From the IMG/VR virus record IMGVR_UViG_3300015360_000036, positions 1 to 64,000 of that record: 64,000 nucleotides of DNA, one strand, 5' to 3'. Below the pieces are notes generated by a model, which saw only the letters and a list, made by a program, of their open reading frames with translations, did not search any database and had not been told where the DNA came from. The DNA is from a virus. This document shows, one piece after another, positions 34,386 through 44,575 of this stretch. The position numbers and the translations under genes were made by a program. Each line of letters begins with the position of its first letter. The stretch's first letter is position 1.

Positions 34386-35219
34386 ATGAAATGTATGTCT
34401 TGTGAAGCATCAATTAATCCAAAATGGAAACATGCTATAGATAATAACACCTGTCCTTGCTGCGGTCTTTTCATCATGGAAGAGGAATTGAAGGAATTAT
34501 TATTGTCATTAGGTGAAACCATAAATGATCTAAGTAAATATCAAGAGCAAGTAGATGATTGGTTACTATCAAACCATAACTATATTAAAACTGATTCACC
34601 CAATCTTGTAAATTATATTCCTCAAGATATTATGGATCAAGTAAAAGAAGACGCTAAAGAAGCGGCTATGAATGCTATTAAAGTTATAAAAAATAAAGAT
34701 TTTGCTGAAAGAAAAGCTTCAGGCGGGAAATACACTGTTAAGGTAGAGACTGAGAATGGTGAGCAAGATGTTGAAGTTGAAAAAATCCAAGATGAAGATA
34801 CAACAAATGACTTCTTCAAAAGAGCAGAAGCAGTAAAACCAAATATTGATGGATTTAAAGATCCAGCAGATAAGACAAAGAAGTTAAAAAATCTAGTCCA
34901 ACAAATCAAGAAAAATGGAACTGGCGGAATGGCTGGTGGTGGAAGCGCTATGTCAGAATATGCTGATCCAGAAGCTGTAGCTGAAATGGAAGGCTTCATT
35001 AGTGGTGGTGGAGAGATTAGCTCTGCATTATCATCTGATGGTGGTGACGATGACGCTATTCCATCCATTGTATTATCAATGGCAAATAAAGCTAGAGGTA
35101 ATGGAAATACAAGTGAAGCCAATGCTAGGGACTTACAAAAGCTAGAAGCTTTGCAAAGTAGAACTGCTTCAGCTAGAAGTAATAGTTTGAGCGGCAAAGG
35201 AGCATTTTCTAGATCATGA
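34386..35219 (+). CDS. hypothetical protein with N-terminal Zn ribbon
   Basis: MKCMSC...CPCC; AAGGA RBS. Confidence 0.65.
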   Translation: MKCMSCEASINPKWKHAIDNNTCPCCGLFIMEEELKELLLSLGETINDLSKYQEQVDDWLLSNHNYIKTDSPNLVNYIPQDIMDQVKEDAKEAAMNAIKVIKNKDFAERKASGGKYTVKVETENGEQDVEVEKIQDEDTTNDFFKRAEAVKPNIDGFKDPADKTKKLKNLVQQIKKNGTGGMAGGGSAMSEYADPEAVAEMEGFISGGGEISSALSSDGGDDDAIPSIVLSMANKARGNGNTSEANARDLQKLEALQSRTASARSNSLSGKGAFSRS

Positions 35220-35521
35220 GTATGAGAATAATTGACAACAAAAAAATAGATTTAACGGATGATGAGTGGACAATGTACGAAAATATTGTCAAGTCATATA
35301 CCACTGCGACGAACAAGGGCGAGGATCTATTTATCGATTTATTTGAAACTGGACCAGATGGAATTATTGTTTATCTGAAACCACCATCTAAGTTTAGAAC
35401 TAGTTTCGAAGTGTTCTTGTATCTAATGAGCATTATGCAGCACCAACATCTTCGGCAAATGTATAAGAAGGTTGATGATGTTTGTGCGCAAATGAAACAA
35501 AAAATTGATAGTATAAAATAA
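35216..35521 (+). CDS. hypothetical protein
   Basis: coupled ORF. Confidence 0.6.
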   Translation: MSMRIIDNKKIDLTDDEWTMYENIVKSYTTATNKGEDLFIDLFETGPDGIIVYLKPPSKFRTSFEVFLYLMSIMQHQHLRQMYKKVDDVCAQMKQKIDSIK

Positions 35522-35574
35522 CATCATTTGTCGAGAAAAAGTTCGAAACATTACATATTTAAGGGAAGTCGATT

Positions 35575-36093
35575 ATGGAAAAGAAAGTTGTAACGCTTGC
35601 CGATATAGTTGGTGACGACTTAGAAGAAGAATTCTCTAAGTTCGATCTAACTGAAATTCAAGCAGTACTTATAAGATTATCAGATGTTGATGCAATTGAT
35701 ATTGCACATGCCGAATTACTACAGCAACAAGCATTAAGAGGAGCAGATATTCTATGTGGGTATCTTGGTAAAATAGTAAAAACAGTTGGTTACCTTGAGG
35801 CTAGAGTTAATAGCACAAAGAATAAAGCATCTTTGGATTATCAAGCTCCTGAAGGAAAAACAACTGCTGATATGAAAAAATGGGCTGGAGAGTCTTCATC
35901 AGTCGTTGAAGACATTCAAATTAAGCTTGCAAAAGCCAAAGGCAGTAAATTAGTTTTAGAGAAAAAGTATGATATTTTAATAAAGAGTCATCATCATTAT
36001 AAAGATATTGCCGCAGGCTTACGTAAGACAATCCTTGGATATAGTCCTGGTGCTGGTGTCCCCAGCGAAAAAGTGCCGGAGGGTTATGAGTGA
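35575..36093 (+). CDS. helical protein, possible UvsY-like recombination mediator
   Basis: size, helical pattern (GKTTADMKKWA) and position just upstream of recA; function is inference. Confidence 0.35.
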   Translation: MEKKVVTLADIVGDDLEEEFSKFDLTEIQAVLIRLSDVDAIDIAHAELLQQQALRGADILCGYLGKIVKTVGYLEARVNSTKNKASLDYQAPEGKTTADMKKWAGESSSVVEDIQIKLAKAKGSKLVLEKKYDILIKSHHHYKDIAAGLRKTILGYSPGAGVPSEKVPEGYE

Positions 36094-36208
36094 TTAAAAG
36101 AATCATAACTCCTGGCTAGATAATTAAATATAGTCGAATATGAAAAAATTGCCCATTAGATATAGCAGATATGCAAACACGGGCGAAACAAATATAGGGA
36201 GTTATGAT
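36075..36208 (+). promoter_or_regulatory. structured recA leader with anti-SD and competing helix
   Basis: 36102-36112 is the perfect complement of 36198-36208 (SD plus AUG); 36075-36089 can alternatively pair with 36103-36116. Confidence 0.6.
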
Positions 36209-37400
36209 GTCAAGTAAATTAGAATCATTTTTCAAAAGCTTTGCAGAGGCAGATGCACAATTAGATTTCAAAATGGCACATGAGACCGTAGGTGAGAAAG
36301 TCCCTGTAATTTCTACAGGGTCACTTGCTCTAGACGATGTACTATCATGTGGCGGTCTACCAAAAGGTAGAATAATTCAATACTACGGACCACCAGGCAG
36401 CGGTAAGACTCTTATGGCAATGATTGCTATGTTAGAGGCACAACAGCAAGATCCAAACTCACAACAAGTCTTCATTGATGCTGAGGGAACATTTGATCCT
36501 ACTTGGGCAGAGATTCTTGGATTGGATACATCAAGAGTTATTTTAGTTGAAGGTGATACCGCAGTTAATGGTCGTAAATGTTTCGAAATGCTTTTAGGTG
36601 AACCAAAGGAAGATGCAAAGACACATATCTTAAAAGGTAAGTCAAAAGAAGGCTTATTAGATAAGATTATGAATAAAGACTTCAATATCAACATGATTGT
36701 ATTAGATTCTTTGGGATCAATTATCCCACCCGGAGAAGATACATCAAAAGTTGGTAAGATGAACATGTCATTATTAGCTAGATTTTTAACAACCACTTTC
36801 AGAAAATTGTCTTTAGAGGTAAATAAGGCAGATGTAGTATTCATTGTTATCAATCATAAACGCGATAACATGGACCCATACGGAGCAGATCATACATTCT
36901 CTGGTGGTAATACATATGCACATACACTTAGCGCCAACGTATACTTCGAAGCTATTCAGAGGAAAGACGCTCGTATCGTAGACGAAAAAGAAAATAAGGT
37001 TGGTCATCCATTAAAAGGAACTATTGAAAAATCTAAGTTTGGACCTTGGCCAAGAGCCTGTGAGTTTAAAGTAAACTTTTCAATTGGAGTTATCGATAAG
37101 CATGAGGAAATTGCTCAACTAGCTTTAGATTATAATGTAGTAGTTAAAACAAGTAGCGTTTCACATGAATATGGTGAAAGGAAGTGGGTAGGTTTCCCTA
37201 AGTATTCAGAGGCTATTAAAGATGACCCAATTTTAGCTAGTGAATTGATTTTAAAAGTCAATGAAGCTCGCGAAGCTAAGTTAGAGACTAAGAGGGCTGA
37301 ACAAGCAGCTAAGAGAAAGAAATCTATGGCTGATGCCCCTATAAAAGCAGATGATAATGATTCAGATGAATCTGTTAAGAAAGTAAAGAAGGTTAAGTAA
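36204..37400 (+). CDS. recA: RecA recombinase
   Basis: ISTGSLALD, GGLPKGRIIQYYGPPGSGKT, FIDAE, IVLDS, KSK. Confidence 0.95.
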   Translation: MMSSKLESFFKSFAEADAQLDFKMAHETVGEKVPVISTGSLALDDVLSCGGLPKGRIIQYYGPPGSGKTLMAMIAMLEAQQQDPNSQQVFIDAEGTFDPTWAEILGLDTSRVILVEGDTAVNGRKCFEMLLGEPKEDAKTHILKGKSKEGLLDKIMNKDFNINMIVLDSLGSIIPPGEDTSKVGKMNMSLLARFLTTTFRKLSLEVNKADVVFIVINHKRDNMDPYGADHTFSGGNTYAHTLSANVYFEAIQRKDARIVDEKENKVGHPLKGTIEKSKFGPWPRACEFKVNFSIGVIDKHEEIAQLALDYNVVVKTSSVSHEYGERKWVGFPKYSEAIKDDPILASELILKVNEAREAKLETKRAEQAAKRKKSMADAPIKADDNDSDESVKKVKKVK

Positions 37401-37720
37401 TGTCTAATGATGTTGGAGTAGGAATAACTACAAACGTACCTAATGGTTCAAGGATATCACCAAAACCTAATTACTTAATCAGAGTACAAGATACTGTGGG
37501 TAAAGCCAAGGTAGTTAGAAATTTTGTAACTTTAGATAAACCGGAACTTTTGGTCGGATTTGTTTCGGTTAGAGGATTTTTTACAGAATTGTCGGAGGAA
37601 GAAATATCAAGCAAAATTACCGAGGTCTTGACAACGACGAAAAAAGACTTATTAATAGAAGTGATGTTCGCATCACATGCAATATTGAGTATGAGAAGCC
37701 TAGTTTATAAGGCAAAATAA
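37400..37720 (+). CDS. hypothetical protein
   Basis: coupled ORF. Confidence 0.55.
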   Translation: MSNDVGVGITTNVPNGSRISPKPNYLIRVQDTVGKAKVVRNFVTLDKPELLVGFVSVRGFFTELSEEEISSKITEVLTTTKKDLLIEVMFASHAILSMRSLVYKAK

Positions 37721-43805: not shown

Positions 43806-43811
43806 TCGATA

Positions 43812-43864
43812 TAGTATGGCTGAACCCAAAGAGGTGCAAGAGCACTTAGGAGTCAGCCATGCTA
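43812..43864 (+). promoter_or_regulatory. hairpin sequestering the AUG and enclosing the SD of ORF 43859
   Basis: TAGTATGGCTGA pairs with TCAGCCATGCTA (12 bp, one GU); inner AGGTGC/GCACTT stem. Confidence 0.65.
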
Positions 43865-44575
43865 AGAATAATAGAAACATTTAATAATTTACCACAAGCA
43901 TATCAAGTAGACCCAGATTCCAATTTCGAACCTGGGCAAATCGGCTCTTTAAGAGTCAGGAGCGGTAATGTTGTTGTCGGTATATCTGATGGATTGCATC
44001 CAGAAGGTATTATCGATGACATCAAAACCGAGAAATATAGGACTGTCAAGTGGGAAGAAGAGATAATTGCTAGTGTAGAAGACTTTGGAATGAAAGATTC
44101 TGCCGTTACTACAGCTAAAGATATTAAGTGCCAACTTGAAAAGTCTCACATAATTGTAAAATCATTTATTTCAACTGTACCTGTTACATTAATTCCTATG
44201 AATGGAGTGGTTATTATTCCAGCAGGTACAATATGTAATCATGTATTAGATACGAGTAATAATTTTGCTAATGCAATACGATTTAGCTGTAATTATGCTT
44301 ATAATATTCCAGCAAATTATGATGATAGTACTGTCAGTAGCGGTAGAGTTACTGTATGGAATAAAATGATGATTGCTGAAACTGACATGTTTGACACAAC
44401 TGCCAAATACGATAGATACTCTAGTTTGTATACTATCAATGGGTTATTAACTACCAATAGACCTAGCTATGAGTGTAAATGTATTGGTTTTGTTCTTAAC
44501 GAACCAAAAAGTAACTATGCTGTGGTTAGATTTATGTTTGATCCAGAAGGTAAAGTACAAACGGGTAGTAAATGA
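43859..44575 (+). CDS. putative virion structural protein (capsid cement/decoration-like)
   Basis: beta-rich; FEPGQI, GIIDD, SGRVTVW, ETDMFD, LY..NGLLT, IGFV pattern; inference. Confidence 0.4.
   Translation: MLRIIETFNNLPQAYQVDPDSNFEPGQIGSLRVRSGNVVVGISDGLHPEGIIDDIKTEKYRTVKWEEEIIASVEDFGMKDSAVTTAKDIKCQLEKSHIIVKSFISTVPVTLIPMNGVVIIPAGTICNHVLDTSNNFANAIRFSCNYAYNIPANYDDSTVSSGRVTVWNKMMIAETDMFDTTAKYDRYSSLYTINGLLTTNRPSYECKCIGFVLNEPKSNYAVVRFMFDPEGKVQTGSK

Follow-up and report, generated by a model that had tools for sequence, protein, structure and literature searches.

A lineage-specific helix that may mask the recA start site on read-through mRNA of an uncultured huge phage

In the coat/replicase region of the RNA phage MS2, a long-range pairing is unfolded by ribosomes: its masking strand lies inside the upstream frame, so that translation opens the pairing. 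A different arrangement has been described in phage T4, at which the start sites of e, soc, 49 and I-TevI are masked on long early transcripts, while the transcripts of internal promoters, which are without the 5′ arm, are translated (PMC3014915). Hairpins that sequester the ribosome-binding site (RBS) are also cited there for two free-standing homing endonuclease genes, mobE of Aeh1 and segB of T4. Finally, PeSLs of T4-like phages are near-identical terminator/promoter composites that are dispersed through one genome and mediate recombination (PMC2839356, PMC4122927).

Here we describe the leader of a phage recA gene, the start site of which may be masked on read-through mRNA in the manner of T4 e, soc and I-TevI, as part of a cassette of stem-loop and promoter that was inserted between two genes ancestrally close together. 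We prefer this reading and hold it tentatively, with somewhat less than even confidence. The leader was examined in what we call the window, which is the whole stretch of DNA that was analysed (64 kb), out of a 73.8-kb IMG/VR virus record with a completeness estimate of 17%. Among the genes of the window are those for a DnaE-type polymerase, a type IA topoisomerase, an SbcC-like protein, a gpA-type terminase and a portal. As the relatives of the window phage were contigs of 200-480 kb, the phage is taken to be a huge phage. It was present in DNA sequencing runs of microbial-mat metagenomes, with no RNA run listed as containing it, and no nucleotide matches to the window were found among the INPHARED phages, with all protein matches at 32% identity or less. 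The features of the locus are as follows.

35522-35574, plus strand: putative conserved regulatory region 5′ of the uvsY-like gene, with an enriched 12-nt core
35575-36093, plus strand: upstream gene encoding 172 aa, probable UvsY-like recombination mediator, from its AlphaFold model and fold matches
36075-36089, plus strand: final five codons of the upstream gene, which can pair with the anti-SD strand instead, in a 14-bp duplex, and are themselves like a Shine-Dalgarno (SD) plus ATG
36094-36206, plus strand: lineage-specific spacer of 113 nt with a stem-loop and promoter-like cassette, missing from most of 71 relatives
36102-36116, plus strand: anti-SD strand, of which 36102-36112 pairs perfectly with the SD and start, and 36103-36116 with the end of the upstream gene
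36114-36135, plus strand: inner hairpin 1, 5 bp, in the minimum-energy folds and absent from relatives
36149-36186, plus strand: inner hairpin 2, 6 bp, enclosing the GATATA motif, the sole part of the leader with homologues
36159-36166, plus strand: GATATA-type promoter-like motif, with a predicted transcription start site at about 36171-36175, downstream of the anti-SD
36197-36209, plus strand: 3′ strand of the helix, comprising the recA SD (36197-36201), a 5-nt spacer and the probable start codon (36207-36209)
36207-37400, plus strand: recA, a RecA/UvsX-family recombinase gene (Pfam RecA, 2.2e-35; PHROG 97, UvsX-like, 2.2e-53)

The 172-aa product of the upstream gene had no Pfam, PHROG or PDB sequence match. 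Its AlphaFold model, built from 33 homologues, reached a pLDDT of 89, and the ten best PDB fold matches of the model were all T4 UvsY (TM 0.53/0.64-0.69), at a Foldseek E of only about 0.1. A protein-atlas lead pointed to one cluster, 15% of which is UvsY. The gene is thus a probable, not a proven, UvsY-like recombination mediator, and we read the pair as a probable uvsY-like/uvsX-like operon.

Immediately 5′ of this pair, the 12-nt core of the region 35522-35574 was the top-enriched intergenic word in the loci of the relatives, with about 20 copies and an enrichment of 13-17 fold, and the region is probably the source of transcripts that read through into recA. The box is found at the same position in about 20 relatives, and about 10 nt downstream of it, beside the SD, we observed a ATTATAGA-like element; box and element together are a candidate operon promoter with an activator site. 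A scan of 35000-37600 for intrinsic terminators identified none in the spacer, and the sequence past 36116 is not T-rich. Read-through is plausible, since no intrinsic terminator stands between the two genes and a conserved regulatory region precedes the first one.

As for the start of recA, it is probably the ATG at 36207 rather than that at 36204 which functions, because the N-termini of the relatives (MSNKLE/MSSKLD) align with MSSKLE from 36207 and because GGGAG (36197-36201) then lies 5 nt away, as it does in the relatives. We also noticed a 25-codon open frame without an SD (36140-36217) that crosses inner hairpin 2 and the recA SD and stops 8 nt past the recA start codon. This frame is probably due to chance; its translation would open the helix.

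A sequence-only reading of the same DNA had claimed that 36102-36112 is the exact complement of 36198-36208, and we confirmed that the former is the reverse complement of the latter. It had also placed both the SD and the start codon of recA in the helix; the SD is covered, but with the start at 36207 only the first two bases of the start codon are. The helix was the sole inverted repeat reported within 36000-36300. In the minimum-energy fold of 36094-36215, it extends to 36100-36113 / 36197-36211, with one bulge and about 12-14 bp, and its arms, separated by 85 nt, close a three-way junction; both inner stems proposed earlier, 36114-36118/36131-36135 and 36149-36154/36181-36186, are enclosed by it. 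This fold had an energy of -27.5 kcal/mol, compared to -15.3 +/- 3.0 for shuffled sequences (z -4.06), and 0 of 200 shuffles were equally stable. Folding of the larger segment 36060-36230, a check suggested in the sequence-only reading, gave a z of -2.93, with the inner hairpins in the minimum-energy fold. In a modelled 36040-36250 transcript the anti-SD:SD pair probability at equilibrium was 0.82, and the SD bases were 2-10% unpaired.

Such a pairing is rare in shuffled sequence. Only 3 of 20,000 dinucleotide shuffles (1.5e-4) had, in the 112 nt upstream, an exact complement to the start region of 11 nt or longer, and the 11-nt complement of recA is the longest among the 71 window genes, the runner-up having 9 nt. 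A duplex-energy test of the recA start-region pairing made a weaker case: z was -3.43, and 5 of 300 shuffles did equally well (empirical p about 0.017). The 11-bp helix is unlikely to be due to chance.

Two further patterns were noticed in the leader. ATATAG is present in three copies, at 36128, 36160 and 36192, with exact 32-nt intervals (0.3% of shuffles had an equally spaced hexamer triple), and the anti-SD and SD strands lie 96 nt (3 x 32) apart, in the same phase as this triple. The spacer was free of repeats by Tandem Repeats Finder. We considered whether a direct repeat of 7 bp, at 36083 and 36201, could be a target-site duplication and rejected this, since excising the interval would destroy both the upstream stop and the recA start.

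The anti-SD strand has a second partner. As had been proposed, it can form about 14 bp with the end of the upstream gene: 36075-36089 pairs with 36102-36116 over 14 bp, including 2 G-U pairs, with one bulged A. The duplex energy of this local hairpin is -19.5 kcal/mol, versus -17.9 for the SD helix. Keeping the SD region open lowers the stability by 3.9 kcal/mol, and the best fold then contains the local hairpin. The two-state geometry is real, and the two states are nearly isoenergetic. Within the upstream arm, 36078-36088 consists of an SD-like run, 2 nt and an ATG, resembling 36197-36206; this ATG opens only a 3-codon frame. The local hairpin (36075-36116) is not a canonical terminator, as it is without a U-tract.

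The GATATA motif that the sequence-only reading had noted at 36159, downstream of the anti-SD, is present. Across the window, the 7-mer of the motif showed a 27:9 bias towards the plus strand, with 8 of the 27 plus-strand copies in the 4.3% of the DNA that is intergenic, and its intergenic enrichment was 7-fold. In G005, a complete relative of 361 kb, 13 of the 25 copies of the 8-mer are intergenic against 1.7 expected; copies in this genome are often found 13-19 nt before an ATG without an SD, and also before two tRNA genes. The motif occurs after intrinsic terminators as well, and it precedes homologous genes in phages that are only 40% identical. Judged by this distribution, it behaves as a clade-wide promoter-like element, of which the recA copy differs from the 8-mer consensus at the last two positions. 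Complete relatives each encode a small sigma-70-family factor, which makes phage-specific promoters plausible. Promoter-like sites on the minus strand of the leader were at chance level only.

A motif 13-19 nt before an SD-less ATG would have the geometry of a -10 element driving leaderless mRNA. Many genes of G005 (L210-L228), such as 185378, 191913, 145368 and 301391, lack a Shine-Dalgarno and carry, 13-19 nt upstream of the ATG, a GATATATA-type motif. The pattern suggests that leaderless mRNAs may be widespread in the clade.

Before recA, the motif has a characteristic surrounding. In relatives with a spacer it is located 40-53 nt before the recA ATG and is usually bracketed by a GC-rich inverted repeat of 4-6 bp, the sequence of which varies from phage to phage in a covariation-like pattern. 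The stem-motif-stem layout, with different stems, was found before recA in L242, L039, L233, L234, L249, L246 and L014, and also in L083. The z for pairing of the flanks averaged -1.35 over 19 recA-proximal cassettes, 7 of them below -2, compared to a mean of -0.32 for the other G005 motif copies (2 of 18 below -2). These per-sequence statistics were used in place of a cassette alignment; MAFFT and RNAalifold on eight recA-proximal cassettes gave no consensus structure, the loop lengths differing and the 3′ arms being out of register. A scan of IMG/VR with an 18-nt degenerate pattern derived from inner hairpin 2 returned chance or coding matches only. As far as these comparisons go, it is the bracketed motif, rather than the anti-SD helix, that is conserved before recA. 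Were the motif a -10 element, transcription would start within the loop of the bracketing hairpin.

Taken together, the preferred reading runs as follows. The 113-nt spacer would be a lineage-specific insert that split an ancestrally tight pair of UvsY-like and UvsX/RecA-like genes, its 5′ end forming a stem-loop that is followed by a promoter-like element. On read-through mRNA from the upstream gene, 36102-36113 would pair with the Shine-Dalgarno and start codon of recA, and with these masked the recombinase would be poorly translated from that message. RNA begun at the internal GATATA-type promoter, near 36171-36175, would be without the masking strand and hence freely translated, so that recombinase synthesis would track the internal promoter and not the upstream operon. 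This scheme draws on the helix itself, its stability and its rarity by chance, on the way in which other copies of the motif in the clade behave as promoter-like elements, and on the predicted short transcript, from which the masking strand is missing. Our inferences are that there are indeed two transcripts, of different temporal classes, and that translation drops when the start site is masked.

Three gates for recA translation had been put forward in the sequence-only reading, and promoter choice is the best supported of them: the motif is promoter-like clade-wide, and RNAs modelled from 36168-36176 do not contain the anti-SD, with the activity of the promoter being a prediction. In these RNAs 36102-36116 is absent and GGGAG is unpaired at 0.10-0.82 per base (0.41-0.80 in RNA modelled from 36140). 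The SD of the short RNA is only partly freed, as a weak local pairing with 36224-36228 persists.

Three other motif-bearing leaders of the window pair the start region with sequence at or before the motif, those of genes 43859 (z -4.76), 16797 (z -3.04) and 10334 (z -2.04), which are among the five strongest start-region pairings of the 71 window genes. The strongest in the window is a 14-bp hairpin at 43810-43866, which masks gene 43859 from its SD to its ATG and has a 5′ arm overlapping a GATATAGT motif. Homologues of gene 43859 in five large relatives were only about 40% identical and had unrelated leaders. Motif plus masking as a clade-general design was not supported, with z < -2 in 3 of 33 motif spacers of G005 versus 10 of 143 others; since the association fails there, no clade-wide design is claimed. 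The mechanism at recA would be of an already known kind and, with a single unconserved helix, is probably of modest interest.

To follow the helix through the clade, recA loci were gathered from IMG/VR and JGI metagenomes, which gave 71 distinct junctions (58-83% protein identity) of the following types.

44 of 71 relatives: 9-15 nt from the upstream stop to the recA start, no leader
9 of 71 relatives: a gene inserted exactly at the junction
11 of 71 relatives: a spacer of 43-124 nt
7 of 71 relatives: another neighbour upstream

A complement of more than 8 nt to the own start region, in the 112 nt upstream, was found in 0 of the 68 relatives with enough sequence. When the long spacers of the relatives were folded, no start-site masking was seen (z near 0), except for L029, where it is the palindromic TATATA motif itself that pairs with the start region. 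Covariation in related leaders had been proposed as a check of the switch; we found the anti-SD helix to be neither conserved nor covarying in the relatives, which is the sequence half of what the sequence-only reading itself had named as counting against it. Its other database check, with Rfam/Infernal, identified no family that matches the leader, the search of 35000-37500 at E up to 10 having returned no relevant match. A blastn-short search of 36060-36215 against the window gave only the self match and chance 10-12-mers, and there was no second copy in the loci of the relatives either. No homologue of the anti-SD-containing 5′ half of the spacer was found in the window or in these loci, and the closing helix and hairpin 1 had no counterpart in any relative examined. 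Since the 5′ half of the spacer has no homologue, the relatives have no complement and Rfam is empty, the helix looks like a lineage-specific structure and not a conserved riboswitch.

Closer to the window phage, DNA contigs from four microbial-mat runs, which cover the leader partly, had zero variants in either helix strand. The sole spacer variant was T36163C, inside the GATATA motif, on one contig (depth 4.8) from a different microbial-mat sample. The two nearest RecA proteins, P0003 (94% identical) and P0004 (91% identical), are outside the 71 junctions compared, and scans of IMG/VR and GTDB genomes with these proteins retrieved nothing nearer than 83%. The P0004 RecA has 691 aa and contains intein homing-endonuclease Pfam domains; a near relative therefore has an intein in recA.

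Genes inserted at the uvsY-like/recA junction were mostly HNH homing endonucleases, with start codons that overlap the upstream stop. The inserts are located as follows.

L083:704-1417: HNH endonuclease insert
L055:804-1511 (L055/56): HNH endonuclease insert
L082:537-1331 (L082/57): HNH endonuclease insert
L020:2254-3003: other inserted gene, not counted as HNH

At least three lineages have an HNH gene at the junction, and at least four have an HNH or other endonuclease-like gene; on the basis of these loci, the junction is an insertion hot spot. The segment 36136-36190 showed 64% identity to the spacer after the L083 endonuclease gene (0 of 2000 shuffles scored as well), and one stem pair of inner hairpin 2 changes compensatorily relative to L083. 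The long spacers of L234, L039 and L041 likewise open with a small stem-loop, which is followed by the motif.

These inserts bear on a different explanation, which we consider rather unlikely, namely that the structure is a by-product of the origin of the spacer: a leftover stem-loop and a recA promoter cassette, whose helix may form but is unselected and has no regulatory role. Possibly, the spacer is the scar of a lost homing-endonuclease gene and the anti-SD strand a relic of the start-site hairpin of that gene, as the gene inserted exactly at the junction in 9 of the 71 relatives and the homology of the 3′ half of the spacer with that after the L083 endonuclease gene would suggest. The stem-loop and subsequent motif in the long spacers of L234, L039 and L041 are in line with such an origin, and so is the lack of conservation of the anti-SD helix. 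It might also be, although we doubt it to much the same degree, that 36102-36116 exists as the 3′ arm of the stem-loop with 36075-36089 and matches recA through the resemblance of two SD-plus-ATG targets. The SD-like run, 2 nt and ATG of 36078-36088, so similar to 36197-36206, would fit here, as would the local hairpin being the stronger duplex (-19.5 versus -17.9) and the one transcribed first. However, the strand fits the recA start better (11 perfect pairs) than it does the end of the upstream gene (14 pairs with 2 G-U and a bulge), and the likeness of the two targets itself calls for an explanation. The exact-match p of 1.5e-4 also speaks against a by-product, the local hairpin, being without a U-tract, is not a canonical terminator, and so stable a helix would be expected to reduce initiation whatever its origin.

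The two mutually exclusive helices on one strand (SD helix probability 0.82, SD-open fold 3.9 kcal/mol less stable) could instead form a ribosome-gated switch that couples the translation of both genes, which we regard as unlikely. Because only 2 nt separate the 5′ arm of the local hairpin from the stop codon that follows, ribosomes have to break this hairpin up. In one version, with no ribosomes on the last upstream codons, the local hairpin would hold the anti-SD and leave recA open, and traversing or terminating ribosomes would free the anti-SD and mask recA. The opposite version starts from the base of the helix, by which the stop (36091-36093) comes to lie no more than 7 nt from the strand that pairs with the start codon: the helix would bring the upstream stop beside the recA start, and a terminating ribosome would melt it and re-initiate, restoring a coupling lost by insertion. 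The ancestral spacing of 9-15 nt (44 of 71) does imply translational coupling, broken by the insert. Yet the two versions predict opposite signs and neither is favoured by the data here, the helix shows no conservation, and a ribosome at the upstream stop, which the sequence-only reading had given as its first gate, proved a weak one: the anti-SD lies outside the upstream frame, starting 8 nt past the stop, and 8 bp over the SD survive a ribosome parked there, with positions up to 36105 single-stranded. A more ambitious form, in which a bistable ribosome-sensing leader re-creates or inverts the UvsY-like/UvsX-like coupling across the promoter cassette, with ribosome traffic setting the protein ratio and the hairpin-embedded GATATA as a second conserved control layer, seems quite improbable. 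Least probable would be a riboswitch or protein-binding leader, with the multibranch domain binding a metabolite or a phage protein (e.g. recombinase, mediator or SSB) and setting the exposure of the start site. The three-way junction geometry and low folding energy would suit it, as would the motif-enclosing hairpin that recurs before recA in relatives with differing stem sequences, but Rfam was empty up to an E of 10, no relative has a counterpart of the closing helix or of hairpin 1, and the loops are promoter-like AT-rich sequence rather than conserved ligand-pocket positions. For a binding-protein (or ligand) gate as such we found nothing in favour, with no Rfam match.

Returning to masking on read-through mRNA, should it operate as we propose, the T4 device, which silences read-through messages and has only those of an internal promoter translated, would also run in a separate uncultured clade of huge phages, which have 200-480 kb genomes, a polymerase of the DnaE type and a sigma factor of their own. 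If true, such a device can arise quickly once an insertion splits a coupled gene pair. More durable results are the candidate promoter motif of the clade, including its apparently leaderless genes, the gene for a probable UvsY-like mediator, in tight linkage with that of the recombinase, and the homing-endonuclease insertion hot spot between the two.

Compared to the systems described above, the recA leader shares with the RNA phage MS2 a long-range pairing that masks a downstream start beside an upstream cistron; unlike in MS2, the masking strand (from 36100/36102) is outside the upstream frame, 8 nt past the stop at 36091-36093. As with PeSLs, a short stem-loop (36075-36116) is followed by a promoter-like motif at an indel junction between conserved genes, and the inserts differ among relatives, whereas no second copy of the spacer was found in the window or in the loci of the relatives, and its stem-loop is without a U-tract. 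The local hairpin is similar to those of mobE and segB in covering an SD-like run and an ATG at 36075-36089, exactly where relatives start their inserted HNH genes; in contrast to mobE and segB, the window has no endonuclease gene, and the hairpin would be a relic of one.

The closest resemblance is with T4 e, soc, 49 and I-TevI, at which the SD and/or AUG likewise lies inside a helix on the long transcript (here 12-14 bp, with a probability of 0.82) and a promoter-like element between the arms gives a transcript of its own without the 5′ arm, as is predicted here from the sequence. The setting is also that of a large phage, the T4 scheme being one of a large lytic phage with temporal promoter classes. 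On the other hand, the arms here are 85 nt apart and close a three-way junction, unlike the compact hairpin of T4; the masking strand can pair equally strongly with the upstream gene; as a promoter motif there is a GATATA-type element and not the T4 late motif TATAAATA; and the helix is absent from relatives, while the structure of T4 gene e recurs in close T4-type phages. The gene that would be masked also differs from the masked genes of T4, for it encodes a recombinase.
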